A stretch of DNA of 64,000 nucleotides from an uncultured virus (IMG/VR IMGVR_UViG_3300022929_002303) (Duplodnaviria; Heunggongvirae; Uroviricota; Caudoviricetes), in IMG/VR virus record IMGVR_UViG_3300022929_002303; one strand, written 5' to 3'. Below the pieces are notes generated by a model. It did no database searches. It was not told the DNA's origin and saw only the letters and a list, made by a program, of their open reading frames with translations. This document shows positions 9,752 through 52,910 of this stretch, in pieces (the stretch's first letter is position 1; every line of letters starts with the position of its first letter). Both the position numbers and the translations under genes were made by a program.

Positions 9752-12700
9752 ATGGATTTTAAAGACATCTTAAACAAATTCGACAAAGCATCAAAAGAAG
9801 AATCTATTGTCGAAACTACTCCTAAAAGACCAGCAAACATGTTGACTGAATCAACAGAGTCTGGTGAAGTTGTAGAAGTTGTTGAAGGAGTTCAAGTACC
9901 TTCATTAAAAAATATGTTTGAAGAACTTTCACTAGAACCAGCAAAGCCTGGTGCACAAACAATTCATAAAGACGGTGAAGTAATCGGAACTGTTTCTAAT
10001 CCAGCAGTTGCTAATCAAATGTCACAAGCAATCGACAAAGGCGAATTACAAATCGGTCAAGAAATGCAAGAAGCAGAACAACTTGACGAACTTGCTCCTT
10101 TAGCGGCATTAGGGCCAGCACTTATGACTGGTGCTAGAGTGGCAGGTCCTTGGTTAGCAAAACGTGGCGCTCAAATGATTAGTGGAGTCGCCAGAGGCGC
10201 AGGTAACTATGCTAAAAAGAACCCAATCAAAACTGCTGTAGGTACAGGGGTAGCCGGCACAGAGCAAGGTAGAGAACTTGCAGGCAACGTCAAAGACGGC
10301 GCTGTCGGAATGTATAACTTAACCAACACAACATTTGAAAAAATGAATGATATGATCGATTCAGGTAAACACACGTTTGACCAAGCCTCTCAAAAAATTG
10401 CAGACTTAGGTGACGGCGCAGGTGGTATGATTAGAGGCGCAATCGGTGATGCCGCATTTGATACAGTTAAAAGAACAGCATCAACATATGGTCTTCCTTT
10501 ACTAGCCGCAGTAGCATTACTATACGGCGGAAAGAAAGTTTTAGATAAAGTAATGGACAAAGACGAAGATACTGTTAGAGAAGCAAAAGATTGGATCTCG
10601 GGTGCTATCAAAGACCCAGGTGCATTCTCAGCAAAAGCAAAAAGACATGGAATGACAACTAAAGCATTTGCTAATCACGTATTAGCAAACAAAGATGATT
10701 TCCCTGCAAAAACAGAAAAACAAGCAAATCTTGCTAAAACATTAGGCAAGATGAAAGAGGGCGAAATGCCCCCACAAGGTCCAGGACAAGCATCTCCTTT
10801 AACATTTGAAGGTGCTCAAAATCCACCGGATGACGGTTCACATAATTCATCTAACGATGAAAAAGGCAACGCCGCGGCAAACGCCGCATTGGCAGCCAAC
10901 GATGCTGATACACCGCAACTTGTAAAAGAAAAAGCAAAAGGTAAAGTAAGCAAGTCGAGTAAATTACCTAGTATTTCAAAAGTGAAATCTATGTGTAACG
11001 AAGGGCTGTCTACTAAAGAAATACAACAACTGCACCCTAAGTGCAACCAACAAGAACTTAATATTATGATTAAAAATACTAAAACAAACTTAAAAGAAGG
11101 CGCAGATCACATTCTGAAGGCCGCAAAGCACATGGGTCATGCTCATGGTTTATGTAAAGGATCTTATGCATGTCCACATGATGCAGGTTCTGAAGGTGCA
11201 AGAGCATACCACGAAGGCTACAAAAAAGGTCTTGACGAAGCATGTGGCATGGGAATCAAAAACGAACCAATCGCAGGTATGGAAGAAGGCGTACTCGGTG
11301 GAGTAGGCGGTGCTATTGCAGGATCTAAATTAGGTGGCATGGCAGGCACAGCAATCGGTGGTTCAATCGGTGGCGTTCCTGGAGCAACTATAGGTAAGGC
11401 AGCAGGCGCGGCACTAGGTGGAATCGCAGGTGATAAATTAACAGGCGACGGCATCTTTGAAGAACCAGCAGATGAAGTTGTAGATACTATGGCATCTTAC
11501 GGTGCAATGGGCGAAGCAGAATCTTCACCAGACGGAGACGTTGGTGCTGATGATGACGGTGCATATGACAAATATGACTGGGACGCACAAACTGTAGCAC
11601 GTAAAGGCATTGACGAAGATGAAATGGAAGAAGGTAACGCATTTACAGGCGCAATGGCAGGAAAAGAAAAAGGTGAAAAGTTTACAGTAGGCGACAAAAC
11701 ATTTACAAAAACATCAGAAGCCGCTACATTAGAAGAAGATGAGTGGACTTTTGAGTCTTTAGAAAAAGAATTAAACTCACACTTAGTCGAAAGCACAGAA
11801 GAATCAAAAGAACAACTTGACGAAGGCTATACAATGTCTATTACTCAAGGCGAAGAAAATCAGCCAGACAGAGTAAGTGTTAATGCCACAGATGCAGAAG
11901 CAGACAAGTTAATCAAGTTTGTTAAAGACGTAGGCTTAGGTAACTATGGTGATGCAGAAGTATTAGATGCACCAGGTGAAGTTGCAGACGTATCATTTTA
12001 TGGTAGCCCTGAAGTAGAAGTAGAGCCTCAAAGTTCACACGATGACATGCTCAAGTTAATGGGTATTGTAGACGTAGACGGTGACTATGAAGATGAAGTA
12101 GAAGCACCCGGCGTAACAGACGTTGACGTACAAGTAGATGAAAAGTCATGTGACGAATGTGGTGGCGGACATAGCATGGAAGAAGGCTGTGGAGACAAAG
12201 CATACGAAGATCAAGGTTATGATGACAAAGAAGATGAGTCATTAGGTATGAGAACTGGTAAAGAATCAGGTAAAAAACAGTCTATGAAAGACCGTAGAGA
12301 TGATTCTTATGGTAAGTTCGGTAAACGTGACTCTGAACATAGAGATGTTTCATTAGAAGAACAAGAAAAAGATGCAGGATTATACGACAAGTATGATTGG
12401 GACGCATCTACAGTTGCTAAAAAAGGCATTGACGAAGAATCTGATGCTGAAAGAGACGATCATGCAGAACGTGCAGGTAAAGAAGTTGCACGACACGCAA
12501 AGTACGACGGTCGTAAGCACCCAGGAAGAGATGGTGAAGACATCGTTAAAGATTTAGAATACGATGACTGGAAAGATAAGCATCATATGGAAGAAGATCA
12601 AGGCTATGATGACAAAGAAGATGAGTCATTAGGTATGAGAACTGGTAAAGAGTCTGATAAGAAGCAAAGTATGAAAGATCGTAGAGATGATTCATATGGT

Positions 12701-13495
12701 AAGTTTGGTAAGAGAGATGAAGAACATAGAGAAAAATCTTTAGAAGAAACTCTTGCTCAGTTAGATGAACTTGCTCAGTTAGATGAAAAGCAAGGTTATG
12801 ATGACAGAGAAGACGAACAACTAGGTATGAAAGACGGCAAAGAATCTGATAAGAAACAATCAATGAAAGATCGCCGTGATGATTCACGTGGTAAGTTTGG
12901 TAAAAGAGATAAAGAAGATGACAATAAACCTCGTTCTTTAGAAGAAAATCTTAGAACTTTAGACTTATTAGCAGAAGTAGGCGCAGAAACTTCAGAAGAA
13001 CCTACTCAACCATTATCACAACATGATGATGAGAGACTTTTAACTAAAGAAGGCGCAGAGGATGCCCCTAAGGACTCTATAAACGATGGTGAGAACGAAG
13101 AAATCACTGAGATGGAAACTGATGCTCAAAGAGAATTCAAAGTAGCAGAAGGTGAAGATAAGCCAGACTTTGCTGACATCGATGATGATGGCGACAAAGA
13201 TGAGTCTATGAAAAAAGCCGCTAAAGATAAGAAAGAAAAAGTTGATGAATGGGCAAATGATGCAGGTAAGAAAGGTACTGATACAGCATTTGAACAAGAC
13301 ATTGAGTTTATGACTAAAGTTATCTCTGGTGGTCTTAACAAGCAGAAGTCAACAGGTCAAACAACTATCCCAGTTATTGCTGGTCAAGAAGACAGAATGG
13401 GATATAATGGTGCTGACGTTGTTAAAGAGGGTTCTGTTGTTTCATCTAATGGATTCGCAACTATTTTAAACAAGTTAGATAGTATCAAAGAATAA
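9752..13495 (+). CDS. Large acidic modular internal-head/scaffold-like polyprotein
   Basis: 1247 aa, E/D/K/G-rich; short modules bounded by LDE/MEE/LKE/IDE; internal repeats, glycine-zipper and hydrophobic segments. Confidence 0.6.
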   Translation: MDFKDILNKFDKASKEESIVETTPKRPANMLTESTESGEVVEVVEGVQVPSLKNMFEELSLEPAKPGAQTIHKDGEVIGTVSNPAVANQMSQAIDKGELQIGQEMQEAEQLDELAPLAALGPALMTGARVAGPWLAKRGAQMISGVARGAGNYAKKNPIKTAVGTGVAGTEQGRELAGNVKDGAVGMYNLTNTTFEKMNDMIDSGKHTFDQASQKIADLGDGAGGMIRGAIGDAAFDTVKRTASTYGLPLLAAVALLYGGKKVLDKVMDKDEDTVREAKDWISGAIKDPGAFSAKAKRHGMTTKAFANHVLANKDDFPAKTEKQANLAKTLGKMKEGEMPPQGPGQASPLTFEGAQNPPDDGSHNSSNDEKGNAAANAALAANDADTPQLVKEKAKGKVSKSSKLPSISKVKSMCNEGLSTKEIQQLHPKCNQQELNIMIKNTKTNLKEGADHILKAAKHMGHAHGLCKGSYACPHDAGSEGARAYHEGYKKGLDEACGMGIKNEPIAGMEEGVLGGVGGAIAGSKLGGMAGTAIGGSIGGVPGATIGKAAGAALGGIAGDKLTGDGIFEEPADEVVDTMASYGAMGEAESSPDGDVGADDDGAYDKYDWDAQTVARKGIDEDEMEEGNAFTGAMAGKEKGEKFTVGDKTFTKTSEAATLEEDEWTFESLEKELNSHLVESTEESKEQLDEGYTMSITQGEENQPDRVSVNATDAEADKLIKFVKDVGLGNYGDAEVLDAPGEVADVSFYGSPEVEVEPQSSHDDMLKLMGIVDVDGDYEDEVEAPGVTDVDVQVDEKSCDECGGGHSMEEGCGDKAYEDQGYDDKEDESLGMRTGKESGKKQSMKDRRDDSYGKFGKRDSEHRDVSLEEQEKDAGLYDKYDWDASTVAKKGIDEESDAERDDHAERAGKEVARHAKYDGRKHPGRDGEDIVKDLEYDDWKDKHHMEEDQGYDDKEDESLGMRTGKESDKKQSMKDRRDDSYGKFGKRDEEHREKSLEETLAQLDELAQLDEKQGYDDREDEQLGMKDGKESDKKQSMKDRRDDSRGKFGKRDKEDDNKPRSLEENLRTLDLLAEVGAETSEEPTQPLSQHDDERLLTKEGAEDAPKDSINDGENEEITEMETDAQREFKVAEGEDKPDFADIDDDGDKDESMKKAAKDKKEKVDEWANDAGKKGTDTAFEQDIEFMTKVISGGLNKQKSTGQTTIPVIAGQEDRMGYNGADVVKEGSVVSSNGFATILNKLDSIKE
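12206..12915 (+). repeat. Three copies of a ~42-aa coding repeat (EDQGYDDKEDESLGMRTGKES.KKQSMKDRRDDSYGKFGKRD)
   Basis: Copies start near 12206, 12593 and 12785; there is also an exact 18-nt tandem CTTGCTCAGTTAGATGAA x2 at 12752-12787. Confidence 0.9.
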
Positions 13496-13518
13496 AAATA
13501 AAACGTTGTACCCCGTTT

Positions 13519-13547
13519 AAATACCCGGCTCTGTCGGGTATTTTTTT
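13519..13547 (+). terminator. Rho-independent terminator
   Basis: AAATACCCGGC-TCT-GTCGGGTATTTTTTT. Confidence 0.85.
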
Positions 13548-13571
13548 ATCTAAGTAATAAGAACTAAGATT

Positions 13572-13579
13572 GATAAATA
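13572..13579 (+). promoter_or_regulatory. Late promoter GATAAATA
   Basis: Upstream of the fibre gene. Confidence 0.75.
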
Positions 13580-13601
13580 CTAATATTAGGATAGAATTAC
13601 T

Positions 13602-16871: not shown

Positions 16872-16903
16872 TGTTTTGCATCTTTAGAAAGGATAAAAAA
16901 CAA

Positions 16904-19986: not shown

Positions 19987-19994
19987 TTTGTGTT

Positions 19995-20002
19995 GATAAA
20001 TA
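19995..20002 (+). promoter_or_regulatory. Late promoter GATAAATA
   Basis: Upstream of the gene at 20027. Confidence 0.7.
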
Positions 20003-28182: not shown

Positions 28183-29019
28183 ATGGACCATTATCAAACA
28201 TTAGGTGTATCACCTCAAGCCGATCAAAAGGAAATTAAAAGAGCCTATCGAAAACTTGCAGGTAAACATCACCCTGATAAAGGCGGAGATGCTGAAAAAT
28301 TTAAAGAATTACAAAAAGCATATGATACTCTAAGTGACCCACAGAAACGAGCAGAGTATGATAATCCTAATCCATTCACACAATTTCAGCAAGGAGGCAA
28401 TCCGTTTGGTGCAGATAGTCCGTTTGGTGATATCTTTGGTGATATTTTTGGTCAACGTCCTAGAGGAACTAGGCGTCCGCAACCTCAACCAATGTATAGA
28501 ACACAGTTAAATGTTACTTTACGTCAATCATACACAGGTGATATACAAACACTAGAATTAAATACTCCACAAGGTAAAAAAGTCGTGCAAGTTACTGTGC
28601 CACAAGGTGTACAGACCGGGCAACAGACACGTTATGATAATGTAGTTCAAAACGGAACATCTTTAATTATTGATTTTCATGTAATGCAAGATTCATGGTT
28701 TGAAAGACACGGAAACAATTTGTTATGTACACATAACATTTCAGTATTAGATTTAATTGTGGGAACACATTTTAATTTTACTACGATATCTGGAAAGGTC
28801 TTAAAAGTTACAGTAAAACCCAACACACAACCAGGTACACAAATTAAATTAGCAGGACATGGAATGCCAATTGCTGATCGAAGAGGTCCTAATTACACTT
28901 CTGGAAACAACGGTGACCAAATTATATTGCTTAATGGTATTATACCAGATACAATAGAGCAAGGTGTCATAGACTCAATTAAAAAATATAAAGATATCCA
29001 AGACTTAAAGCAAAACTAA
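28183..29019 (+). CDS. dnaJ: DnaJ/CbpA-type co-chaperone (class II, no Zn finger)
   Basis: J-domain with HPD, G/F-rich region and DnaJ C-terminal domain ('G.GMP...GD'). Confidence 0.92.
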
Positions 29020-29044
29020 ATAATATTATACAGAGGAAAAACAT

Positions 29045-31918: not shown

Positions 31919-34075
31919 ATGGCAAATATTGTTATTATGCCAGGTGGATTTCACCCATTTCATGCAGGGCATGCCGCACTTTACAACTCTATAAAAGAGA
32001 AGTATGGTAAAGGCTCTGACATCTATGTGGCCGCTAGTAACAATCAAAAAGAACGACCCTTCCCATTTGAAATTAAAGAAAAATTAGCACAACTTTCAGG
32101 TGTACAACCAGGTGAGTTTGTGCAAGTTAAATCTCCGTTTGTACCAACAGAAATCACAAACAAGTATGATCCAGACAAAGACACGATTGTTTTTGTACGA
32201 AGTGAAAAAGATAAAAATGAATACCCAAAGCCCGGGGCAGTTAAGAAAGACGGATCACCGGGATACTTTCAACATATAGATACAGCAAAAAGAGGTGCAC
32301 AACCTTTTAGTAAAGTAGGCTATATGGATTACTTACCAGTTAAAGAATTTGCAGGTATTACTAGTGCTACACAAATCAGAGATACGTGGCCTAGTCTTAA
32401 TGATGATCAACGTGAAGAATTTGTAACACACATTTATCCTAATATAAAAGGCAACGACAAACTAATTAAGAATGTAGTTAAGTTATTAAGTAAAGGAATG
32501 TCCTTAAATGAAGGACTAGCATATATTGATAAAGATGGTAACAGAGTTGATTATACAAGACCTGACTTACCCACAGACATTGAAAATTTAGTCATTGATT
32601 GGTTTAATGACAGAGACAAATACACTAAGGCAACTTTACAATCTAAAGGATATAAAGTAGACGTTGATGATAAGTTCAACAACATTGATATTACAGACAA
32701 AAGAGGTAGAAAATATACTGTGTCTACAGACGATGCAATGTCTAAACTTATACAACAAGCATATGCAGAACCAATGACTGAAGACAAGAACGATACATTA
32801 CTTGATACAAAACGTGCAAGAGCAATACTTCAACTTTATACAAGAACAAACGGGTTTGATTTAAGAAAAATCATATCAAGCCGTAAACGTGGCGGCGGCA
32901 CTAACGAAAGAATAATGACAGTAATGCTTAGACCGGACTCTAAGACTTTCAGTAGAGACGATATAGATAATCTTTCCGATGAACTTCAAAGAAGATTTAG
33001 TGTTACAGTTCCTAGAATGACTATTACAGGTAACGGTAGTTATCTTAATCTAAATCCTGTTGTAGTTACAAAAGTAAATGAAGCATTTGTTGACCCAGAT
33101 CAATCAAAGCAATATTGGAACCACGATGCACAAAAAGTAGGCGTCGGTGGACAAATAGAGTTTCCACTTACTGACACACCAAACTTAAATGGCAGAAGAC
33201 AAGGCTTCAATGAAGGTGAAGAAAGAAGTGATATCGAAACTGCCGCTTATGAATGGTTGCTAGATTATAAAAGTAAAAATCCTGAAGCAGACTATGAAAA
33301 ACTGTATTCAGTATTAAAAAATGTTAGCCACGATGATCTTGGTACACAAGAATTAGATTATTTTATAGGAGAACCATTAGGCTTGAACATGGACAACAAG
33401 AATTTAATTGTTGATGCTGTTCTTGCTCAAATGACAGAAGGCGTGCGTAGATACAGATACGAAGAAAGCATAGAAAAGATTCGTAACATGATTAAAGAGT
33501 CAAGTGACGAACAGAAATCTAAGTCCACAGATTTACATCGCAAACTGTTTGAACTTATGGAAGAAGAAAAAAACAACGTTGTTAAACTCCGAGGTTTTGG
33601 TAGAGAACAAGATAAAAAAGTACCTGATTTAAACATAGTTAGAAAAGAAAAAGAAAAAGAACAACAAAGAAATCAAGGCGAGTACGATAAGAAAAGACAA
33701 CAGCAACTTGCATACTTAAGAAAGATACAAGAAGTCTTATTTGAATTGCATGAAGAATTTGCACAGATGGAACAGTTAGGTCTTTTACCTATCGAAATGA
33801 AACAAAACTTTGAAAACGTAAAAGAACTAATTAACTTTGTAGAGAACTATAGTGCTGATGATTTCCCCTTCACTGATGATGACGGGAACTTACTTGAATC
33901 ATTGCATGTGAAGACTCTGCAACTTAAAGAATATTTTGGTGGTTGGAGAGACAGACAAGCACCTAGAACATTAAGAAACGATAAGCCAAAACTATCCCCA
34001 TTAACAAACGTAAATAATGCATTTTGGAACACGATTGATTTGTCCGAAACCGCTGATTATATCGAAGAAAAATAA
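31919..34075 (+). CDS. HxGH nucleotidyltransferase (cytidylyltransferase-like) domain fused to a modular C-terminal region
   Basis: 'PGGFHPFHAGH' and 'SATQIR' (HIGH/KMSKS-type NTase) within the first ~200 aa. Confidence 0.8.
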   Translation: MANIVIMPGGFHPFHAGHAALYNSIKEKYGKGSDIYVAASNNQKERPFPFEIKEKLAQLSGVQPGEFVQVKSPFVPTEITNKYDPDKDTIVFVRSEKDKNEYPKPGAVKKDGSPGYFQHIDTAKRGAQPFSKVGYMDYLPVKEFAGITSATQIRDTWPSLNDDQREEFVTHIYPNIKGNDKLIKNVVKLLSKGMSLNEGLAYIDKDGNRVDYTRPDLPTDIENLVIDWFNDRDKYTKATLQSKGYKVDVDDKFNNIDITDKRGRKYTVSTDDAMSKLIQQAYAEPMTEDKNDTLLDTKRARAILQLYTRTNGFDLRKIISSRKRGGGTNERIMTVMLRPDSKTFSRDDIDNLSDELQRRFSVTVPRMTITGNGSYLNLNPVVVTKVNEAFVDPDQSKQYWNHDAQKVGVGGQIEFPLTDTPNLNGRRQGFNEGEERSDIETAAYEWLLDYKSKNPEADYEKLYSVLKNVSHDDLGTQELDYFIGEPLGLNMDNKNLIVDAVLAQMTEGVRRYRYEESIEKIRNMIKESSDEQKSKSTDLHRKLFELMEEEKNNVVKLRGFGREQDKKVPDLNIVRKEKEKEQQRNQGEYDKKRQQQLAYLRKIQEVLFELHEEFAQMEQLGLLPIEMKQNFENVKELINFVENYSADDFPFTDDDGNLLESLHVKTLQLKEYFGGWRDRQAPRTLRNDKPKLSPLTNVNNAFWNTIDLSETADYIEEK

Positions 34076-35132: not shown

Positions 35133-35160
35133 AAATGCCCCTCTCCCAAGGGGCATTTTT
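35133..35160 (+). terminator. Rho-independent terminator
   Basis: AAATGCCCCT-CTCCCA-AGGGGCATTTTT. Confidence 0.85.
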
Positions 35161-35181
35161 CCTTGTGTATTCCTCTTTATT

Positions 35182-35189
35182 GATAAATA
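35182..35189 (+). promoter_or_regulatory. Late promoter GATAAATA
   Basis: Lies after the terminator and before ATG 35216. Confidence 0.75.
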
Positions 35190-35215
35190 CTTATATTAAC
35201 AAAGGATTGATATCA

Positions 35216-35872
35216 ATGAAGTTTAACGAAATAACCGAAAATGCATCCGCAGGCGCAACAGGCGCTGGATCAGTTTCATCCGTATCATCGCCGATGGGCA
35301 CACAATCACGCAATCCTAGCATTTACGGCGGTAAAAAAGCAGGAAACTTATTGACAGGTAAACGTTCAAAGGGCAAATATGCTAATTCTGTTGATGCACG
35401 TAAACAAACCAATAAAGTTAATGAAGCAAAAGTTGATGAAGCGGAAGTTTCAGAAGCAGAAGTTCTTGTAGTTAAAGGCGCAAAGCCACGTGATCGCAAA
35501 TCGGGATTTGTTAAACATGGTGAAAGCAGAGTAGACCACGAAGTCAAAATGGCTAAGGCTGATTTATTTGCAACTGCTAAAAACGCACAAGAAATTATGA
35601 TGTATCTTAAAGATAGATCAGAAGAAGAAGGTATTAAGGGTTGGATGCAGTCTTACATTACACTAGCAAACGACTATCTCAATTCAGTCAAAGAATCAAT
35701 TCAATATGAAATGCAAATGCATGAAGATCAAGTTGCCGCATATGGCAACGGAGAAGATGATCGTTATCATGTAAATAAATTAGACATGGAGCCATATGGT
35801 GAACCTAGTTCAAGTTACCCAGGTGGAACATTGACAGGTACGAACTTGGCAGAAGACGGGGACAAACAATGA
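35216..35872 (+). CDS. Putative internal head protein with a leader
   Basis: Start re-called to MKFNEITE|N; contains a 'DHEV.MA...L...A..I......GW.QS.ITLA.DYL.SV' module. Confidence 0.65.
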   Translation: MKFNEITENASAGATGAGSVSSVSSPMGTQSRNPSIYGGKKAGNLLTGKRSKGKYANSVDARKQTNKVNEAKVDEAEVSEAEVLVVKGAKPRDRKSGFVKHGESRVDHEVKMAKADLFATAKNAQEIMMYLKDRSEEEGIKGWMQSYITLANDYLNSVKESIQYEMQMHEDQVAAYGNGEDDRYHVNKLDMEPYGEPSSSYPGGTLTGTNLAEDGDKQ

Positions 35873-38411: not shown

Positions 38412-39416
38412 ATGCGATTACGTGAATTGCAAGAAGGTATGGGAGCATCAGCAGGCGGAGGAACACCCGGATCTGCTGGAGCAGGTGGTTCATCATTAGG
38501 TCTCCCCTATCCATCAACATACGAAGAAGAAAACGATAAGTTCAAATATCGTGGTCCCCAAAAAACTGTGGCTATGACAACCGAAGAACAAGGGGAAATG
38601 TTTACGGATCATCAAAAGATGCAAGAGATGATGAACGACAAAGATTGGCCAGCAGACTTGCAAGAAGAAGTTCTAAAAAAATATGTCAATAACCCTGAAG
38701 AGGGAGAAAACTTCATTGCAGATATGGAGTATAAAGGTATAAGACGATTAAGTAATTACGGTCTTTTACAAAATACAGAAAACTTAGAGTTATTAACAAG
38801 ACTACCGCAAAACGTTATAGATAAAATTAACGAGACATGGCAAATGTCTATTCCTAAAACAAAAGCAACTTCAGTATCTGATTTAGGATACGAAAAATAT
38901 ATTATGCAATATGGTTTTCTTACAAAACCAGCAGTAGCAATGGATGCAGATATAATAATGGGTTCAGAAAAATGGGTTGCCAGTGTCATTAACGGTGAGA
39001 AAGCAAAAGCCTGTCATATTATAACACCTATAGGACCAGGTGTCAAGTCTAATACACCTGATAATAGTTTAGCACCCGCGAGACAAAAAGAACTAGCATT
39101 CGTTGAAGGCAAGCATTGGGCTAGAAATGATCTGCCACAACTCAATATTGATGATCTTAAAGACGAAGATATTGAAGAAAAACATGTACGATTTGAAAGG
39201 CTAAAACCTGTACAGACAGAACGTGTAAAAGGTCTTGTAAAAAAGACTCTTAAGATGTTAAAGAAAGGTAAACATAAACCTATAGTCATTGATAAACTTG
39301 GTTATATTGTAAATGGTCATCATAGATATGATGCGTATCAAAAATTAGGGGCATCATACGTTCCTGTTATTAAGGTAAATGCAACCATCGAAGAACTAAT
39401 CGATAAATACATGTAA
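38412..39416 (+). CDS. Leader-bearing protein with a C-terminal ParB/Srx-like domain
   Basis: MRLRELQE|G; C-terminal 'LKPVQ...KPIVID...IVNGHHRY.A...LG...VPV'. Confidence 0.75.
   Translation: MRLRELQEGMGASAGGGTPGSAGAGGSSLGLPYPSTYEEENDKFKYRGPQKTVAMTTEEQGEMFTDHQKMQEMMNDKDWPADLQEEVLKKYVNNPEEGENFIADMEYKGIRRLSNYGLLQNTENLELLTRLPQNVIDKINETWQMSIPKTKATSVSDLGYEKYIMQYGFLTKPAVAMDADIIMGSEKWVASVINGEKAKACHIITPIGPGVKSNTPDNSLAPARQKELAFVEGKHWARNDLPQLNIDDLKDEDIEEKHVRFERLKPVQTERVKGLVKKTLKMLKKGKHKPIVIDKLGYIVNGHHRYDAYQKLGASYVPVIKVNATIEELIDKYM
39402..39409 (+). promoter_or_regulatory. Late promoter GATAAATA upstream of dps
   Basis: Embedded in the end of the previous CDS. Confidence 0.6.
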
Positions 39417-42800: not shown

Positions 42801-45800
42801 AAAATACCCCGGTGAGTATTATACTATGTTTGAGTATCATCCTTTAAAAACAAATCCATTAGGAAAATCAACTAACGTATTTACAGATTACGGAAGACCT
42901 GTAGCATTTAATGAAAGGGGAATGATTCAATTAGGTGTTGGGGAACAAAAAAATAATAGTTATCATAGTAAAAACGATTCAATGTCAGACTTTGTAGATT
43001 CTGCTAGGGGAGGTGCAGGAAGTATTACACCTAACACACCTCTTTATAATGAACTAATGGAACGTTTTCCCGAGTTGGCAAATTATATTGCTGAAAAGAG
43101 TAAAGAGATTGGAGATGTTAGAACTCAAAATCTAACAGAAGAAGATATAATTGAAGTAGGACAAAACAGAGTTTATATATTTAAAAACCATGATGGCTCT
43201 GATTGTTATTATATTACCCCAATAGCAAATGAAATTAGACGAACCAATGGTGAAATTAGTGATAGACATATATCATCTGAAACTGAAAGAAGTATGTCGC
43301 AATATCAACGAACTGCCCACACATTAAACCCAAGAAAAATAGCAGGGCATGAAGAAGATTGGGAAGATGACGATCATTGGAACTCTGGTGAATCGTATGT
43401 GATTAACTTTGAAAGTACAGAAAGCAATCCTTTCTTACAAGTTCCTTTGTACATAGATCCTTTTAGAGGTGTTGCAGAATTACAAGTCAATGCAATCGAA
43501 TTCGATAATGATAATAAAAGATATACTGCTACTGAGGCTCCACAAAATAAACAATTTATTATTGATCAATTAAGTGCTGTACCACAGCCCAATGAAGAAA
43601 ATATGAACACGGCAAGTTTCACTGCTAGAAACTATCTTACAAGAGCAAAACAAAATCCAGAGTTAATGCGATGGTTAGAACAAAAGGCAGAAGAAGCAAA
43701 TGCAAAGACAAATGGCGTGGGGGCATTTATTAATTTTTTACCTATAACAACAGAACAAATGACAATAGACGTACCAAAAGTTCATGGTGTAGATGTAGTA
43801 GGTATTGCAAAAATAGGCATTTCAAATCCTTTATATATTTGGCAAGGAAGAAAGGCTATTTTTCAAAATATAGAAGACAGATTATTAGCAGGTTCAGAAA
43901 ATTATTATCAGCGGCAGGAGAGTGACAACCCCGACCCTTACACTCAATGGGCCAATGAATATGCTAATTCAAAAGATTTAGCACCAAAACAAGAAGGCGG
44001 CAGTATTAGAGGAATGTCAAGGTTTATATCTGAGACAGTATCAGAAGGTGTTGTCGGCATAAAGCCTGAATCCGGTGGCAAATTTTTAGATTATGACTAT
44101 CATCGTACTACTGGCAGAGGCATTACTTTAACTCAAGTACCAGATGCTAAATGGGTAACAACAGGCAATCAATTATTAAATTTAAATAAGATAGCCAAAC
44201 CCAAAGAACTAAAACAAATGGGTTTATCACCTACACAGGCATGGGGTCCTCGACAGGTTGCTCAATTACCTAATCCTCAAATAACAAATAAAGGTAAACC
44301 TTGGATTAATAACATTAAAGAATTTAAGTTTCCTGATGGCTTGGGTATTAATGCAAGTGGGTATGGTAACAGATTGCCGCAAAAAGTTTTAGGTCCGGGA
44401 ACAGGATATTTAATTACTTTAAATCCTATTAGTGATGAGCCTTATCGAAAACGTAAAGATGGTAAAATAGTAAACATGCAAAGTCCATGGCATACAGCAA
44501 CTAGGGCTGTTAGAGATTTAGATTTACCTTGGGATTTTACTCATGGTGTTTTAGATTATTCAAGAGGAGATTTTGAAAAGAAAAATACTATGATGATTTA
44601 TTTTTCTAATAATCGTGTTGCTTATTTCTTAGAGCCAACTTATCACGGTGATTATAGACAGTTTAATCTATCACAAGAACAAAAGAAAAAATTATTCTTT
44701 GATCCAGAAACAGGTCTTTTCCCTGAACTAAAACCTATATTTGATCAGTATGCAAAATCAAACAAATGGTTACGTGAAAATAAATGGCATTATATGCTGT
44801 CAAAAGTATTGTTTGAAAGTTTAGGAGATAAAGCATACTGGGAATTAAAAAAGAAAAAGCCAAAGCAAAATTATGGTCAACTAGTATTCTTAAATAACAT
44901 ACGATTGACAGGAAGTTATAGTAACGAACAATTAAAAGCAATGGGCTTCTTTATGAAGAACGGCTCTTGGGCAATACAAAAGCCTAAGTATGACAGACTT
45001 GTCAGTGACGGTAAGTTAAAAGAAATGATTAACAGACCATTAAAGACTGGTACAAATAGAATACCTAAAGTAGGTAAAAAGAAAGTACAAGAAAACGTTT
45101 GGGCATTTGATGCAGAAAAAGCATTAGAGTTATTGAAAGAACCTTTACTAAGAGGTGGAGATAATGATGATGTTGATTTAAGTTGTGAAGTGTGTCAAGG
45201 ACATGGCTGTGGGCCAGGCTATGACATCAAAGATGACTTGAGACGTTGGAAAGAAATGCTTATTCCAGATGCTGATTCAAAACCTGAACATCTTACAAAC
45301 GAATACATTGAAGCAAGAGTAAAGAAACTAGAAGCACTTGTCAATAAGTATCCAAACGGAATACCTGACAACATAGATTGCACTGCTGGCATGTCTAATA
45401 TGAAACACAGAGAATATCAAAAGATTAAAAGACATGATGCAGAAGATGTATTAGATGATGTTATCGGTGACGATGGGTTATTTGATGCTATGTCTGAATT
45501 AGATGAAGAAGATGATGTTAGACCACTAATAATGAATTGGCTTAATCCAGACTGGAGAGCAAAACAAAGACCAGGGTTACCTGAATATCCACTAGTAGCA
45601 GATGTTGACTTTGCAGACCTATACAAAAGAGCAAGAAAAATTTATAACCCTTTACGTGTAGTTAAAGAAGGTAAGAAGTTACCTAGAACTAGTGAGTTCT
45701 TACATGTAAAAGAATTAGAAGACATTAAACGATTGTCTGGCGTGTATGAACGTTATCAGATACCAGTACAAGTTGAAGGTGCAACATCAGCATATTCAGG

Positions 45801-45942
45801 TTCAAACATATCAAAGACTGCGGCAGAGATTGCAAAGATAATGAAAGAGAAAAACATTCAGCCCGGAACTCCTGAATGGTTTCAACTGTGGTTTTCACTA
45901 CCAAAAATGACTGGCGAAAAGCCAACCGGAGATATAAAATGA
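39877..45942 (+). CDS. Very large (2021 aa) modular protein; N-terminal 'YG.GT.WCT' domain followed by degenerate repeats
   Basis: Leader-like MLSSHFESILLE|Y; 'ADPT.NK.Y..W', 'AAC.YG.GT.WCTAS'; repeated (Y/F)PEL units; C-terminal EDIKRLSG and 'NI.PGTPEWF.LWF' modules. Confidence 0.65.
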   Translation: MLSSHFESILLEYKQSITAKKMGEGLVGRFNLDIIDFPSLLTPKLTKAFETMEQLDVQITDFENKKEQNEIKPEELAKLQPKIQKAQEQYNILENQIAVHILEKLEAADPTNNKGYVQWLARLYINGETSLEDVESTIADYLDKFHKLKIKRHLSNADIGQYKDFDAFMNDMDQYPNDVLDDDEAKNKTYKADKIYDENGVLIIHPKDKEAACRYGRGTRWCTASTRGHNYFASYNRRGPLYIFVPRKPDHPGEKYQFHFEDNVVADETDAYLDQDQLIRLVNRYPALKDAFQPQAEKYGLIYLQKPKRVMKGSNFTVEEYRKNDKPLYLMLGEMDVDGEYGKQDIYMLWKKDPNDDNYQIKKIGNSRYRDDTTLNVLEQHKLVNKYPELISKFGLKTKHLKKDPTRSQTKSGADIEMHGTTAVLKDKQGHSTSIELRDPDKSRIGDDKLLVHTQKTNPFTSKDKKEIRDQINPFEVTLEHPELIDLYSPLLDKKIKHEVRQHHGDAKDKRKFKEDLYQKYAPLMPYKLYDKGDVIIKSHVTPDGKPILDYIITKDNDKETNAITVVYRNQRDGNVDKIIQAEPRPLYDLADEEDYNLRTPAGDIYGNAEEESKYQRYYQRMNDSFRSSNALPFLPSISIIEKYPGLKELYKDTSLASPKTKEVSNANVKDFGKTKRESNKRSYYRNDWHDTTAETMRNFIVQPKDAEEGESYAISWSPEIPQLSEIYHSASDGTQTKIGDKQTKRHVLKSFPEIRALQIKDWDKFIKNNPEYDVKEHGAGDSSYNDDILQDWSFSPTEVVDNDRVIVSQFGPKQGDPFQLPSFEVFPKQKNPFGKVGDTFFIYLSLKDYRGKSGKISDIRIERIGKNTHHFVPVNKYGRTEKQGNEDFVQAGVQLRENQYSLDSKEIIDFFKYYPELRGMIKDENVHPKVPHPALAKQPEDSSENVQQMDGFKLEKQTTNDPNLDKYFIVPDEEKYPGEYYTMFEYHPLKTNPLGKSTNVFTDYGRPVAFNERGMIQLGVGEQKNNSYHSKNDSMSDFVDSARGGAGSITPNTPLYNELMERFPELANYIAEKSKEIGDVRTQNLTEEDIIEVGQNRVYIFKNHDGSDCYYITPIANEIRRTNGEISDRHISSETERSMSQYQRTAHTLNPRKIAGHEEDWEDDDHWNSGESYVINFESTESNPFLQVPLYIDPFRGVAELQVNAIEFDNDNKRYTATEAPQNKQFIIDQLSAVPQPNEENMNTASFTARNYLTRAKQNPELMRWLEQKAEEANAKTNGVGAFINFLPITTEQMTIDVPKVHGVDVVGIAKIGISNPLYIWQGRKAIFQNIEDRLLAGSENYYQRQESDNPDPYTQWANEYANSKDLAPKQEGGSIRGMSRFISETVSEGVVGIKPESGGKFLDYDYHRTTGRGITLTQVPDAKWVTTGNQLLNLNKIAKPKELKQMGLSPTQAWGPRQVAQLPNPQITNKGKPWINNIKEFKFPDGLGINASGYGNRLPQKVLGPGTGYLITLNPISDEPYRKRKDGKIVNMQSPWHTATRAVRDLDLPWDFTHGVLDYSRGDFEKKNTMMIYFSNNRVAYFLEPTYHGDYRQFNLSQEQKKKLFFDPETGLFPELKPIFDQYAKSNKWLRENKWHYMLSKVLFESLGDKAYWELKKKKPKQNYGQLVFLNNIRLTGSYSNEQLKAMGFFMKNGSWAIQKPKYDRLVSDGKLKEMINRPLKTGTNRIPKVGKKKVQENVWAFDAEKALELLKEPLLRGGDNDDVDLSCEVCQGHGCGPGYDIKDDLRRWKEMLIPDADSKPEHLTNEYIEARVKKLEALVNKYPNGIPDNIDCTAGMSNMKHREYQKIKRHDAEDVLDDVIGDDGLFDAMSELDEEDDVRPLIMNWLNPDWRAKQRPGLPEYPLVADVDFADLYKRARKIYNPLRVVKEGKKLPRTSEFLHVKELEDIKRLSGVYERYQIPVQVEGATSAYSGSNISKTAAEIAKIMKEKNIQPGTPEWFQLWFSLPKMTGEKPTGDIK

Positions 45943-46241
45943 AAGAAGTAAATTATGACGAATTAAATCGTATCAGAGAATTATCAGGTACGTTGCGTGA
46001 ATCATGGCAAGAGAAAATGAAAGATAGACCTATGCCATTTGATGCACAAATATTAGATGATGAACCTGCAACTGTAATGAATCCTATCAGTGGTGCTACT
46101 ATTAAACTTGACCCACAAGAAATTGCAGTATATGATGTTATCATGGGTGCGAACTTAACACAGCAATGGGACTTAGTAAGAAAAGGTTCTGACTGGTTTA
46201 GAAAACATAATCCAGAAGCATATATGGTTTTAATAGACTAA
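45939..46241 (+). CDS. Hypothetical protein with a DELNRIRELSG motif
   Basis: Start re-called to ATG 45939 (SD GGAG, ATGA overlap). Confidence 0.7.
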   Translation: MKEVNYDELNRIRELSGTLRESWQEKMKDRPMPFDAQILDDEPATVMNPISGATIKLDPQEIAVYDVIMGANLTQQWDLVRKGSDWFRKHNPEAYMVLID

Positions 46242-46890: not shown

Positions 46891-46891
46891 T

Positions 46892-47461
46892 ATGAAATCA
46901 AGGGACTTCAGAAAACTGAACGAGAGCATTGATTTTTCAGTGACGAAGTCCTATGTGGATGACAGAGGCAAAACCGTACATGATATGAGTCACTTTGGTG
47001 AACGCAAAGATGTAGATTGTTGGGTTTGTGATGGTACAGGTAAAGACAAATATTACGATGAAGCGGACTGTGATTATTGCGAGGGTAAAGGACAAAGACT
47101 TGAGTTTGTAAGTGATGCTCCTGAAATGAATGTCAGTAATTCTAATGCATTTAAAATCATTGATATGTTAGGATTAGAAAAAGTTGCAGGACATGTAGAT
47201 AATAAAGATTTGCCTGCTGTCATGCGTAGACTTATACAATTAAAAAATGCAGACACATCACAATATACTGAGCCAGGTTCAATGACAGGCGGTAAGATAG
47301 GTGCGTATAAAGACAAAGACGGTATGGATAGAATAGGAAAAACAGGTATAACTATGTACCACGGTGGCACTAGTGACAGACAAATAAATCAGTACATCGA
47401 TCAATTAATAAAAATAGTTAAATTTGCCCAAGACAATGACGCCGACTTCGGTTGGGGATAG
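46892..47461 (+). CDS. Leader-bearing protein with a DnaJ-type Zn finger
   Basis: MKSRDFRKLNE|S; CWVCDGTG...CDYCEGKG. Confidence 0.7.
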   Translation: MKSRDFRKLNESIDFSVTKSYVDDRGKTVHDMSHFGERKDVDCWVCDGTGKDKYYDEADCDYCEGKGQRLEFVSDAPEMNVSNSNAFKIIDMLGLEKVAGHVDNKDLPAVMRRLIQLKNADTSQYTEPGSMTGGKIGAYKDKDGMDRIGKTGITMYHGGTSDRQINQYIDQLIKIVKFAQDNDADFGWG

Positions 47462-47464
47462 TCA

Positions 47465-47935
47465 ATGAAAATAAAAATCGTACCAACTGAACCTCGTTGC
47501 GGTGATTGTACAATGTGTTGTCAAACTGTAGGGTTTACAGGAGATTGGAAGATTACTGATCTTTACAACGAAGCAGAAAAATTTGATATTGATTTCGGAC
47601 CCTGGGAAACTTGCAATAAACTATGCGACACCGGGTGTTCTATACAAGAAAATAAACCTAGAGTCTGTAAAGAATTCTTTTGTCAATTTATAGAACGCAA
47701 CCTTTCAGAAAAACACCATCCTAAAAATACAGGGTTTGTAACGTTTAGAGACGGTTTACCCTTAAACAGTCGAATTGTCATACACTCTAATGATAAAGAA
47801 TTACCGCCCGATATTCAATACAAAAACAATAAAGAATTACTCAACGACATGTTAGATGAAATGCAAGATAAATTAGGACAAGATTGGCTGTTTGCTCAAT
47901 TAAGTACTAAAAAAGGTAAGATAAGAATACGATGA
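47465..47935 (+). CDS. YkgJ/FliB-family cysteine-cluster (Fe-S) protein
   Basis: CGDCTMCC...C..L...GCSI...P.VC..F.C. Confidence 0.8.
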   Translation: MKIKIVPTEPRCGDCTMCCQTVGFTGDWKITDLYNEAEKFDIDFGPWETCNKLCDTGCSIQENKPRVCKEFFCQFIERNLSEKHHPKNTGFVTFRDGLPLNSRIVIHSNDKELPPDIQYKNNKELLNDMLDEMQDKLGQDWLFAQLSTKKGKIRIR

Positions 47936-49374
47936 GATTTTTTATCTGCAAGGAAAAATCTAAATTTACAAAAGACTGGAACATAGAAAATTTTGGTGAT
48001 TGGTATTTTATACGTGAAAATGATGTTGAATTATTTGAAGGAGAAAATTTTATTGTATTACATTCCGGTTATTTAATTGACGATGACATAGATGAAGTTT
48101 GTAAAAACTTTAGTTTTAAAAAAACCAATGGAAATTTCTTTGCAATAAAACTCACCAAAGACAATTATGAATTAGCATTAGATTATTTTCAAAACCATAA
48201 ATTGTTTATCGGTAACAAACACGGTATAGAAATTACTAACTATTTGCCCTACATGACAATTAAGCAAGAAGACATTGTTAGAACAAGTGTTAAACCAGAT
48301 CAATATGAACGTGAACTATCAGAAACAGAACGCACTACTTATTATGATAAGATATTTATTTTTGATCCAGGCTATGATTACATACAAGATGCAAAAGATG
48401 CATTTGCACAAGAAATTTGGCATGATCAAGCAGAATTAACCGACTATATACATGGGTGTATGCAACAACACGCAGATATTATTAAAGAAAAATATCCAGT
48501 TAGGATGTGTTCTTTGAGTGAAGGATTTGATTCAGCAGTACAAGGTCAATTTTTTAAAGATGACCGACAATTATTATATATTGTAGAGCCGTGCATTTCA
48601 GCAGAAAACCATAAAAAATTTATAAAATTAGCACAAGAACAGTTTCCTAATACGCATGTTATGGAATATGAAACACAATATAACAGACAGCATTGCCTAG
48701 ATCACTTGACGGATTCTTCATGTCGTTGGCAATCTGTACTGCCAACACTGATGCAAGTAAAAATGCAAGACATTAAACCTGATATTATCATGTACGGCAG
48801 TAATGGTAACGAGATGTTTTGTAGAGATTTAATACCTCATATGTTATTTTTGTGTTTACAGTATTATAACACTGATAAAATTAAAATGAAAGAAGATTTT
48901 TTAGCAGATATACGAAACAAAAATAATCTATATGGCTCTACATATTCAATATTAAATTCTGAAGAAGAACAGAACTCACACCACGGTTTTACTGCTATTG
49001 TTAATAAATTTGTTGACAAATGGTTTGACTCACCGAATACACACTATCTATCACATAAAAAATATGAAGAATTTGAAAATGAATTAATAAATCTTACAAC
49101 TCCTAAATTATATACACGTGTAATTACAGGTAATATAAACATTATGGCTTCATCATTATACAGTGATAGAAAGATATTTTATGAATTTTTAAAATCTGAT
49201 AACAATGTATTAAGTGGTACTGCAATGAACGCACCAACACAACGAGCATTGCTAGATAAATATAACTATAAGTTTGTAACACCACGCAATGATGTAGTTT
49301 TTGCAGACTACAATGAATTATATACTACATCTTATGAAGCCACTATTGACCACGATTTAGAGCAAAACATATGA
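47932..49374 (+). CDS. Divergent asparagine synthetase-like (PP-loop ATP pyrophosphatase) protein
   Basis: 'NGNFFAI...DYF...LF' degenerate Ntn region, PP-loop 'SLSEGFDS', 'YG.NG.E.F'; no N-terminal Cys. Confidence 0.6.
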   Translation: MRFFICKEKSKFTKDWNIENFGDWYFIRENDVELFEGENFIVLHSGYLIDDDIDEVCKNFSFKKTNGNFFAIKLTKDNYELALDYFQNHKLFIGNKHGIEITNYLPYMTIKQEDIVRTSVKPDQYERELSETERTTYYDKIFIFDPGYDYIQDAKDAFAQEIWHDQAELTDYIHGCMQQHADIIKEKYPVRMCSLSEGFDSAVQGQFFKDDRQLLYIVEPCISAENHKKFIKLAQEQFPNTHVMEYETQYNRQHCLDHLTDSSCRWQSVLPTLMQVKMQDIKPDIIMYGSNGNEMFCRDLIPHMLFLCLQYYNTDKIKMKEDFLADIRNKNNLYGSTYSILNSEEEQNSHHGFTAIVNKFVDKWFDSPNTHYLSHKKYEEFENELINLTTPKLYTRVITGNINIMASSLYSDRKIFYEFLKSDNNVLSGTAMNAPTQRALLDKYNYKFVTPRNDVVFADYNELYTTSYEATIDHDLEQNI

Positions 49375-49994
49375 GAGCAACAGAATTTATAAGTGAAGGA
49401 TTTGCAGGAATACCTGATTATAAAACAATGCCTGCTTACAAACTTAAAAAAGCATCTAAAGGTAAACACAAATTCTTTTTGCCTACAGACACTCCTGTCC
49501 CTGCAGGTGTATCTGCATTAGACGAATACAATTTAGATAATGAAAAAGGTTTGGGTGTCGTTCCTAATAATACAGGCGGTCAACCAGACTATTTCGGTAT
49601 TCGTGTTATGATGAAACCTTCTACATTTCATAAGTTAGCATTAAGTTTACCAAGAGATATGCGTAGTTCACAATATGAAGATTTAGTTGATAAAGTTCGT
49701 AAGGGCGTCCCTATTGCAAGTCCTTTCTTATCTATTGTAATACCCGATGAGTGGGAAGAAGGCGATCTATCACAGCCTGCGAAGGTCACAGGGCACGAAG
49801 GAAGACACAGAATGTATGCAGTCGATGAAGTAGACGGAGACGTTCCAGTTGAAGTACATATATGGGGAAGATTTAAATCTAGTGAAATGCGTAGGCGACA
49901 TCTCACCGATGAGATGATACAAGAACTAATAAATGGACTCGTTGACGAGACCGGAAATAATTACATTCCTAATATCGGCACACTAAAGAACTAA
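49371..49994 (+). CDS. Leader-bearing ParB/Srx-like protein
   Basis: MRATEFISE|G; 'M.P..F..LA...I..PFL.I...V.GHEGRHR..A....VPV'. Confidence 0.65.
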   Translation: MRATEFISEGFAGIPDYKTMPAYKLKKASKGKHKFFLPTDTPVPAGVSALDEYNLDNEKGLGVVPNNTGGQPDYFGIRVMMKPSTFHKLALSLPRDMRSSQYEDLVDKVRKGVPIASPFLSIVIPDEWEEGDLSQPAKVTGHEGRHRMYAVDEVDGDVPVEVHIWGRFKSSEMRRRHLTDEMIQELINGLVDETGNNYIPNIGTLKN

Positions 49995-49995
49995 T

Positions 49996-51639: not shown

Positions 51640-51645
51640 TAAATA
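51638..51645 (+). promoter_or_regulatory. Late promoter GATAAATA
   Basis: 5-nt spacer to ATG 51651. Confidence 0.7.
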
Positions 51646-51650
51646 TTAAT

Positions 51651-52910
51651 ATGGACAAGTATAAAAAGACAGCAGGATTAAACTATTTGAGTGAAAACTC
51701 ATATAAGGGAGACGGTTCTCCTGGCATGGTAATGGGTATTGCTAGTGATGCTCGTAGTGATACTAACACATATGAAGGTAAAAAGCCTACGACTAACAGT
51801 AAACACAGTACTGAAAGAGAACTAAAGAAATATGATCCAGCACATGGTCATACAAAACCAGAAGGGGGAAATCCCCAAGTATGTCCTAGTTGTAAGGGAG
51901 AAGGTTGTACATCATGCGGAAACACAGGAGAAGTCATCAGCAAAAAACGCAATGACCCTAAAGTCGATGAATCATTAGAAGATATTAAAAGATTATCTGG
52001 ACTAACAGAGTCTGGTTTTACAGGGGTTGAGGAAATTGATTTATTAAATGACCCAAATGGTGATCGCACACAGAAAGCAATATTAAGGCATCAATTAATG
52101 ACAGATTATAATATTACTTTTTTACCTATACCTGGTGATATTGTTGATCATCCTGAGTTAGGCAAAGTAAAAGTTTTAAAAATTATAGGTCTTGATACTT
52201 ATGGTGGTCCAGCAGAATATGAAATAGAGAATAGAAACGGTAAATCTTTTCCTATAACTTTTGATGAGTTGACAGATATGATTGGCTTCGGAGAAATAAG
52301 TGATGTGCCACAATCAGAAATATCAGAAGATATTAAAAGATTATCTGGCTTATCAGAAGCATTTGCTTGGGACGAGATTGACGAAGCAAAACGAAAGGCA
52401 AGACATGATGATGACGATGATGAAGAAGAAGATGAAAAGCCAGAAGATCCTGAAAAAGATAAAGTCCCGCATATTTTAATGCAACTAAGAAAAGCCCAAG
52501 ACGTAGACGGCGATCACCCAATTAAGTTTTTAGACGGTTCAGAAGTTATTTTACCATTAAAAGATATCAATTTGTTTACAGAAATGTACATGAATGTCAA
52601 GCCACAAGACAGAGAAAGATTACAACAAGTGGCTATTATGAGTAAAGATAAGTTTGATAAACTATTGACGTTCTTCACACCGAAACACGGAAAATTAGAA
52701 AAGAGTATCTATGAAGATGAAGAAGCAGGAGATATGATTACAGAAGAACAGTTTGACGAAGCCGCAGGCAAAAAAGATGCTTGTTATCACAAAGTCAAAA
52801 GCAGATATAAAGTATGGCCTAGTGCATACGCATCTGGTGCTTTAGTTAAGTGTCGTAAAGTAGGTGCATCCAATTGGGGCACTGGCGGAAAGAAAAAGAA
52901 GAAAAAATAA
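51651..52910 (+). CDS. Modular putative internal polyprotein
   Basis: Start re-called to MDKYKKTAGL; CxxC.G.GC..C finger; EDIKRLSGL x2; C-terminal 'DACYHKVKSRYKVWPSAYASGALVKCRK' module. Confidence 0.7.
   Translation: MDKYKKTAGLNYLSENSYKGDGSPGMVMGIASDARSDTNTYEGKKPTTNSKHSTERELKKYDPAHGHTKPEGGNPQVCPSCKGEGCTSCGNTGEVISKKRNDPKVDESLEDIKRLSGLTESGFTGVEEIDLLNDPNGDRTQKAILRHQLMTDYNITFLPIPGDIVDHPELGKVKVLKIIGLDTYGGPAEYEIENRNGKSFPITFDELTDMIGFGEISDVPQSEISEDIKRLSGLSEAFAWDEIDEAKRKARHDDDDDEEEDEKPEDPEKDKVPHILMQLRKAQDVDGDHPIKFLDGSEVILPLKDINLFTEMYMNVKPQDRERLQQVAIMSKDKFDKLLTFFTPKHGKLEKSIYEDEEAGDMITEEQFDEAAGKKDACYHKVKSRYKVWPSAYASGALVKCRKVGASNWGTGGKKKKKK

Follow-up and report, generated by a model that had tools for sequence, protein, structure and literature searches.

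Modular, cassette-swapping genes of a T4-related jumbo myophage as candidate capsid-internal precursors cut by the head protease

A 64,000-nucleotide stretch of DNA from an uncultured Caudoviricetes virus (IMG/VR record IMGVR_UViG_3300022929_002303), hereafter the window, is part of a T4-related jumbo myophage and harbors five open reading frames (ORFs), P0001 to P0005, that read as strings of short modules, followed by a stand-alone gene for one such module, M1 (Table 1). The modular, cassette-swapping architecture of these genes is established, and it appears rather likely that they encode capsid-internal precursors which are cut by the head protease, the best fit being given by P0001, P0003, P0005 and the stand-alone M1 gene. 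The head-cargo reading is weaker for P0002, where it fits the N-terminal half only and the C-terminal half poorly; P0004 as a whole fits it poorly, the reading applying only to its last ~280 aa. A preliminary description of the window had proposed that a glutamate-specific prohead protease cuts the five proteins at hydrophobic-x-Glu junctions into many mature peptides, and the five ORFs and all the junctions quoted there are present in the checked translations. P0005, the last flagged gene, probably begins translation at the ATG at 51651, and the start codon of the stand-alone gene is the ATG at 52910.

The proposed protease is present in relatives of the window phage. A Peptidase_S77 gene (T4 gp21 type) lies beside scaffold and Gp23-type capsid genes in three of five related records (G004, G005 and G006), the order in G004 being acidic core protein, protease, scaffold and Gp23-type capsid protein, and an S77 protease is found in 3/3 of the larger related records that also carry a P0001 homolog. 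In G006, a complete relative of 359,563 bases, all 421 called ORFs were ranked by how strongly they are enriched in the extended motif [LIVMF]-x-E-[GAS]. The scaffold ranks first (14 versus 2.6 expected) and the P0001 homolog second (14 versus 3.6), with a 504-aa protein that ends in a motif characteristic of the scaffold C-terminus (the scaffold-tail motif) in fifth place (7 versus 2.3), the protease itself in sixth (4 versus 1.0) and the acidic core protein at rank 62. When Asp replaces Glu in the motif, the scaffold takes rank 133 and the P0001 homolog rank 180. Among the T4 control proteins the extended motif is enriched in gp22 (10 versus 2.9) and gp67 (3 versus 0.6) and not in gp68 (1 versus 0.6). 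The G006 ranking is the strongest, albeit indirect, support for the view that the P0001 family would meet the same protease as the scaffold. Furthermore, 18 non-redundant P0001 family proteins of other contigs contain 211 extended motifs versus 78.5 expected, with every member above expectation.

The modules recur between genomes rather than within the window, since an all-versus-all BLASTP comparison of 60 window proteins (E<=1e-3) found no block common to the flagged genes; the proposal that similar blocks recur in different genes thus holds across genomes only. Three window genes match PHROG 727 (450 profile positions) on non-overlapping ranges, namely 52874-53224 on positions 108-193, P0005 on 222-309 and P0003 on 309-355. 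In the cyanophages S-RIM8 (591 aa) and S-P4 (529 aa), a single protein, encoded after the head-closure, sheath-stabilizer and small-terminase genes, holds the modules M1, M3 and M4 together with DUF6321, the set of a GC0119-type protein. Similarly, P0100, a P0003 ortholog in the protein database, contains M4, M3 and M1 within one frame, which the window spreads over three genes, and M1 lies inside larger proteins in other phages (P0100, P0011, P0013). The M3 module of the window phage is 80-88% identical to that of many T4-like cyanophages; within the length band searched, the database contains at least 8000 relatives of it. In the database protein P0088, an HD-domain enzyme is followed by a scaffold-tail-like motif and then by M3.

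As the bare hydrophobic-x-Glu motif is weak evidence, for reasons given below, the claim was tested against module borders defined by other means. A module-flank test free of gap placement was applied to non-redundant contexts of M3 (n=31) and M4 (n=24). In 26/31 M3 contexts the 12 aa upstream of the anchor include a hydrophobic-x-E site (null 0.24), many M3 copies having one conserved acidic leader, with independent junction types nearer six than 31; none of the 31 contexts has such a site in the first 18 aa past the anchor (null 0.32). A downstream site exists in 15/31 contexts, 36-69 aa on and mostly at 36-48, and there is none in the other 16. Of the M4 contexts, 15/24 have a site in the 6 aa upstream (null 0.14) and 19/24 have one in the 18 aa downstream (null 0.34). 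The suggested link between module borders and hydrophobic-x-E sites is therefore partly borne out at the flanks of M3 and M4.

In P0001, exchangeable blocks lie between two conserved ends, an N-terminal leader (aa 1-33) and a C-terminal domain (aa 1167-1247), and its orthologs (73-88% identity; 1126-1306 aa) differ by cassettes, the family as a whole ranging from 663 to 1306 aa. The Gly/Ala-rich block can be placed between LDE and VRE sites, which is one of two equally good gap placements, chosen by eye. The 59-aa module that follows is also found by tblastn in 10 Thermus phage records, and the VRE site before it is retained in 8/8 orthologs with four different residues at P2. The charged repeat varies in copy number among orthologs, with x-x-E before each unit, and a further difference among the orthologs is a module with Cys that is inserted behind an L-I-E site. 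A sequence search of the PDB with P0074 and P0001 returned 0 matches. The leader of the gene directly upstream of P0001 resembles the capsid-targeting leader of T4 IPII/IPIII (MKTYQEFIAE, as read from the T4 record), and the G006 ortholog of this gene has a similar leader and occupies the same position just upstream of the P0001 homolog.

Cassette differences are likewise seen in P0002, an ortholog of which in L158 is without aa 289-388, the gap lying between MTE and VNE, and those in L157 and L163 are without about aa 433-507, between FNE and MTE. In L161 (1501-4066) the ortholog is split into two ORFs of 502 and 351 aa; the second of these has its own short N-terminus, V-S-E followed by Gly. 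Cytidylyltransferases are reported in cyanophage virion proteomes in the accessible part of PMC10665884, the authors of which caution on purification carry-over; the parallel with the N-terminal domain of P0002 stays an analogy, since tblastn with this nucleotidyltransferase domain matched only two phage records and gave no sequence link. A kinase-like protein elsewhere in the window (55555-56331) has a second cytidylyltransferase-like region, with 31% identity over 85 aa to the P0002 N-terminus. Of the two genes between P0002 and P0003, the latter (35135-35872) probably starts at the ATG at 35216 and then has a short leader, its match to phrog_17311 beginning at residue 28. Orthologs of P0003 at 91-94% identity are without 244 aa of its middle, others are without the glycine-zipper block, between V-D-E and T-K-E, and the LxE|G site at aa 607 is retained in 4/4 orthologs with four different P2 residues. 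AlphaFold2 models of P0005 and P0003 (mean pLDDT 43.6 and 39.5) are too low in confidence to define module borders; the five P0005 sites all fall outside the two confident segments, but 70% of that chain is of low confidence anyway. A 334-aa protein (38412-39416) encoded between P0003 and P0004, and perhaps also packaged, has a C-terminal ParB-like nuclease region (phrog_620, phrog_8071), and its N-terminus carries L-Q-E and then Gly at residues 6-9.

The last ~70 aa of P0004 occur as a solo small gene in L109, L112, L121 and G006, where the solo genes begin with the scaffold-tail motif, and M1 stands alone directly behind P0005; the claim that modules also exist as solo genes is hence well founded. 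Orthologs of P0005 at 89-96% identity are without its cassette and one of the two motif copies, so that the cassette brings a second 11-aa junction with it, and different cassettes occupy the same slot in L153, P0048 and P0054. In public data, a P0005 identical to that of the window lies on a 335-kb contig. In the database protein P0049, which may be an assembly chimera, a sigma-70-like N-terminus (Pfam) precedes the C-terminal half of a P0005 ortholog.

The scaffold-tail motif, [DENQKS][ILVM].[RK][LIMV][AS]G[LIVM], has three occurrences in the six-frame translation of the window, all of them in flagged genes, with two in P0005 and one near the end of P0004, and a Glu follows two residues after each. 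The motif forms the very C-terminal end of the scaffold in G004, G005 and G006 (DIKRLAGL in G004). Variants of it end the scaffolds of MIJ3, Atu_ph07, K64-1 and SCTP-2, as well as the G006 P0001 homolog, and T4 gp22 ends differently. The 504-aa tagged protein of G006 adjoins the large terminase and matches a PHROG named virion structural protein. Leaders of ~10 residues like those of IPII/IPIII, ending in hydrophobic-x-Glu, were recognized by eye in the genes at 9115 and 52910 and in solo genes of L120 and L146, the likeness being weaker, again by eye, for the five flagged ORFs. Three further genes were noted by eye: all three have leader-like N-termini, 45939-46241, read from an internal Met, containing a variant of the scaffold-tail motif and then R-E, and 46892-47461 and 49371-49994 having hydrophobic-x-E and then Ser or Gly at residues 9-12. 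In Pseudomonas phage MIJ3, a 74-aa gene (L165:1156-1377) between the portal and the core/protease genes, which is the position of T4 gene 67, has a leader much like that of the solo M1 gene, ending in I-T-E and then Gly.

Within the window, six genes contain 36 extended motifs versus 19.5 expected, and the other 54 genes contain 55 versus 46.7; the Asp-for-Glu control gives a ratio of 0.93. These sites, of the L/I-x-E type, are over-represented, as in known S77 substrates, in P0001 (15 versus 6.8), P0002 (6 versus 2.2), P0003 (5 versus 2.5) and P0005 (5 versus 1.7), and not in P0004. The top six of the 60 window genes are, in order, P0001, P0002, P0005, 35135-35872, 34152-35105 and P0003, a ranking that is circular for the flagged genes because they were initially picked by motif. 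A hydrophobic P3 residue is coupled to Gly, Ala or Ser at P1' around Glu in the flagged genes minus P0004 (odds ratio 2.63, p 7e-4), the corresponding odds ratio for the remaining 54 genes being 1.26 (p 0.13). Alignments of orthologs retain the motif in 136/174 site-by-orthologue comparisons, with P2 varying at several sites.

From these patterns we infer how the precursors would be loaded and cut, what would become of the pieces and which roles the modules would play, as follows. The N-terminal leaders and internal scaffold-tail copies would bring the precursors into the assembling prohead, the scaffold-tail tag binding whatever the scaffold tail binds and being clipped at the Glu that follows. 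A T4 gp21-type serine protease (S77) would then cut after Glu in hydrophobic-x-Glu, often before Gly, Ala or Ser, and cutting may remove the tags and free at least some of the modules, such as the basic two-Cys peptides, the glycine-zipper segments and the nucleotidyltransferase. The modules would be gained and lost as cassettes between junctions, probably through recombination at the repeated junction-coding sequence.

A number of observations weigh against such processing. Neither the S77 protease nor scaffold and capsid genes were seen in the window or in G001, G002 and G003 (0/3), the fragments nearest to it, which are incomplete records (23-37% complete), and the glutamate-specific protease of the preliminary description finds indirect support in the relatives and in the motif enrichment shared with the scaffold. 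In G006 the major capsid protein is only at rank 86. Most of the 60 window genes, the clamp loader included, contain 2-3 bare [LIVMF]-x-E motifs per 100 aa, and because the motif is so dense in any gene, the 30-150-aa blocks obtained by splitting at it, in terms of which the flagged genes were initially described, are expected by chance. Relative to composition-preserving shuffles, its excess is modest for P0001 (37 observed, 25.4 expected, z 2.7) and P0002 (22, 14.5, z 2.3) and absent for P0003 (15, 12.7, z 0.8), P0004 (40, 36.3, z 0.7) and P0005 (13, 8.5, z 1.8). P0004 is not enriched in the extended motif either (4 versus 6.1), and its P3/P1' odds ratio is 0.5. Site residues are barely better conserved than their flanks (0.80 versus 0.75; 21/31 sites, p 0.03), and the P0002 sites after aa 507, 527 and 660 are retained in none of 3-5 orthologs. 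Cyanophage-type module chains, in which P1' is often Lys, are not enriched in the extended motif (P0007, 1 versus 1.3; P0013, 3 versus 2.7; P0016, 1 versus 1.5). A hydrophobic-x-E ending at residues 4-12 was counted by eye in ~16/60 window genes, and as this is near what motif density predicts, most 'leaders' are not evidence by themselves. P0001 furthermore lies within a conserved tail/neck gene block, and no proteomic or biochemical datum was found in open-access text for this phage or its module-bearing relatives.

Since the cassette placements described above were partly chosen by eye, blind border tests were also run. Without slack, the border test on indels of at least 8 aa in the P0001 alignment gives 11/131 at the motif (null 7.7; not significant; events redundant), and no enrichment at indel borders was found in the P0003 alignment. 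In a second test, on 37 clustered indels of at least 25 aa with a common shift of up to 4 residues, in which the events are still partly nested, one border falls at hydrophobic-x-E in 21/37 (null 14.6, P 0.03) and both borders fall at any Glu in 11/37 (null 2.9); both fall at hydrophobic-x-E in 3/37 (null 0.17, P 0.0005), which exceeds the null and is still only three indels. The link between indels and motif is real but far from a rule. The idea that cassettes are inserted between cleavage sites is partly supported: in several orthologue comparisons they do lie between hydrophobic-x-E sites, most indels missing the exact motif.

These points lend themselves to another explanation, which we hold to be unlikely, namely that the genes encode ordinary multi-domain or partly disordered proteins in which hydrophobic-x-Glu marks acidic linkers and helix ends, and from which at most an N-terminal propeptide is removed, with the internal junctions left uncut. 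The equal density of the bare motif in unrelated genes, the indel borders that mostly lie off the motif and the lack of signal in P0004 and the C-terminal half of P0002 all agree with this, as do the mostly low-confidence AlphaFold2 models, which are expected of disordered chains. It does not account well for the unenriched Asp control or for a motif kept out of the interior of M3 and concentrated at its edge, and the same G006 statistic singles out the scaffold and the protease, which are known kinds of substrate.

The length, acidity and repetitiveness of P0001, which recall the T4 core proteins, and its motif density, which equals that of the scaffolds, would also suit scaffold-like core or filler proteins that are taken into the prohead and processed at the same sites, with the pieces mostly expelled like the fragments of gp22, gp67 and gp68, so that the modules would not be delivered cargo. 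The excerpted text of PMC9026906 states that T4 gp21 cuts these three proteins into several fragments and that core-protein fragments mostly leave the head. We think this quite improbable, as the 80-88% identity of M3 between jumbo phage and cyanophages and its abundance argue that the peptide itself has a function, and enzyme domains are joined to the same junctions in P0002 and P0088. Highly improbable, in our view, is that P0001 is a tail tape-measure or a tail-lumen/ejection protein, with its Gly-rich hydrophobic segments serving as a membrane channel, and never meets the head protease. The gene does follow those for sheath, tube and head completion and precede those for a large structural protein and a cell-wall hydrolase, in both the window and G006, and its glycine zippers are transmembrane-like. 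Against this stand the absence of any PHROG or Pfam tape-measure match, a length that varies as given above among orthologs and in the family, the scaffold-like motif enrichment and the T4-type head-targeting leader of the gene just upstream; in addition, G006 has another tape-measure candidate, a 950-aa virion protein beside the baseplate hub.

The processing proposed for the window proteins would be a variant of known T4/phiKZ head processing and not a new kind of system, and the statement that no system like this had been described was too strong. By the sections of PMC9026906 available, T4 gp21 cuts after Glu in L/I-x-E, and residues 1-10 of IPIII act as a capsid-targeting sequence, which loads the protein into the prohead core and is removed by gp21; Asp in place of the Glu is reported there to block processing of this leader. 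Like IPI-IPIII and Alt, the precursors proposed here would have a short leader ending in hydrophobic-x-Glu and belong to a variable, fast-changing cargo set; unlike them, the window junctions are many and internal, so that one chain would yield several products, and Pfam and PHROG searches gave no sequence homology to IPI, IPII, IPIII or Alt. Some of the window tags, moreover, copy the scaffold C-terminal tail, which T4 gp22 does not carry. With gp22, gp67 and gp68 the window proteins share several L/I-x-E sites, motif enrichment (as in gp22) and acidic stretches, but these T4 proteins are conserved, single-purpose assembly proteins, whereas exchangeable modules, each conserved separately, make up the mosaic window proteins. 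In phiKZ and SPN3US, cleavage after Glu affects many head proteins, whose propeptides each hold several sites (PMC9026906; PMC3012670, both as excerpted). The inner-body and ejection proteins of phiKZ, 201phi2-1 and SPN3US resemble the window proteins in being cut after Glu by a diverged gp21 homolog and in their multi-site propeptides; they differ in motif (S/A-x-E) and phage lineage, and the excerpts describe no small-module cassette architecture. Polyvalent proteins (Iyer et al. 2017, PMC5512222, in part) are similarly multi-domain, with predicted packaging into the capsid and release as separate activities, but theirs are mainly enzymatic or anti-defence domains thought to be processed by embedded autopeptidases. 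The window chains consist of small non-enzymatic modules with junctions fitting a separate head protease, and a Pfam search of the five flagged proteins found a single weak domain (PF01467 in P0002) and no peptidase domain. Open-access text yielded nothing on small shared modules that are chained through head-protease sites, or on the modules themselves, and T4-GC119 appears only as 'hypothetical protein' in the accessible part of PMC3037559.

The window has a G+C content of 36% and genes almost all on one strand, which include those for a tail sheath, a tube protein, a gp4-like head-completion protein, a clamp loader, a B-family DNA polymerase, a PhoH-like protein and an AAA+ protease-like protein. 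Identity of the tail sheath amounts to ~45% with Sinorhizobium phage Phosso, the PA5oct group and Atu_ph07 and to 37% with SCTP-2. Megablast of 21 kb of the window against named phages gave no DNA-level match, and parts of the window are matched at 100% identity by IMG/VR fragments. At 28183-31327, a 760-aa AAA+ protein that matches phrog_4871, named 'ATP-dependent protease', adjoins a 278-aa protein whose N-terminus resembles, by eye, what we take to be a J-domain (HPD-containing, DnaJ-type); the two, which neighbor two 'virion structural protein' genes, may form a phage-encoded chaperone/unfoldase pair. G006 also contains a 5442-aa open frame (L177:1576-17901), which was left out of the family search owing to its length.

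Table 1. Coordinates of the flagged genes, their modules and adjoining genes in the window.
Feature	Coordinates	Strand	Observation
208-aa gene directly upstream of P0001	9115..9741	+	N-terminal leader MKSLKHYIAE
P0001, modular acidic protein, 1247 aa	9752..13495	+	Translation
P0001 Gly/Ala-rich hydrophobic block, 165 aa (aa 113-277)	10088..10582	+	Absent from 5/9 aligned orthologs
P0001 59-aa module (aa 278-336)	10583..10759	+	Starts directly after VRE|A; phrog_20603 matches aa 280-335
P0001 glycine-zipper-like block (aa 513-570)	11288..11461	+	After MEE|G; 0, 1 or 2 copies in orthologs
P0001 three ~40-aa charged repeats (aa 821-1053)	12212..12910	+	Alignment, by eye
P0002, 718 aa	31919..34075	+	Cytidylyltransferase-like domain aa 1-198 (PF01467, E 2.7e-4), then blocks
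P0002 cassettes, two blocks	32783-33082 and 33215-33439	+	Orthologue alignment
Two genes between P0002 and P0003	34152-35105 and 35135-35872	+	5th and 4th of 60 for the extended motif
P0003, 706 aa	35869..37989	+	Helical N-terminus, M4, variable middle, glycine zipper, hydrophobic segment
Basic two-Cys module M4 in P0003	36235-36321	+	
Glycine-zipper block in P0003	37378-37479	+	
Hydrophobic segment of P0003	from 37690	+	After LSE|G
P0004	39877-45942		
P0004 192-aa cassette (aa 1740-1931)	45094..45669	+	Absent from ortholog L196; borders placeable at VQE and VKE
P0004 C-terminal end	45718..45939	+	Scaffold-tail motif copy (45718-45750), then ~55-aa module; motif scan
P0005, 419 aa	51651..52910	+	Two scaffold-tail motif copies, cassette, M3
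P0005 scaffold-tail motif copies	51978-52010 and 52326-52358	+	Each ending L-x-E
P0005 cassette	52011-52325	+	Bracketed by the motif copies
Basic two-Cys module M3 in P0005	52761-52883	+	After FDE|A
Stand-alone module M1 gene	52910..53224	+	9-aa leader ending L-T-E

Should the cuts be real, a broad class of 'hypothetical' proteins would become readable as virion-delivered cargo, and the junction rule would predict such cargo from sequence. The leaders and scaffold-tail copies would then offer phage engineering loading tags that can be tested, a use that the T4 capsid-targeting sequence already has, and phages would renew their set of injected proteins through cassette exchange rather than gene gain. 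We put forward, tentatively and as a possibility rather than an expectation, that T4-related phages of both marine and fresh waters, ranging from cyanophages to jumbo phages, have in common a capsid-cargo cassette system. In it, small and separately conserved modules (basic two-Cys peptides, glycine-zipper segments, enzymes) would be linked into precursors by junction peptides, each acting as a loading tag that mimics the scaffold C-terminal tail or a T4-type leader, as a cut site for the head protease and as a recombination point; if so, the capsid would deliver a fast-evolving set of many peptides per gene.

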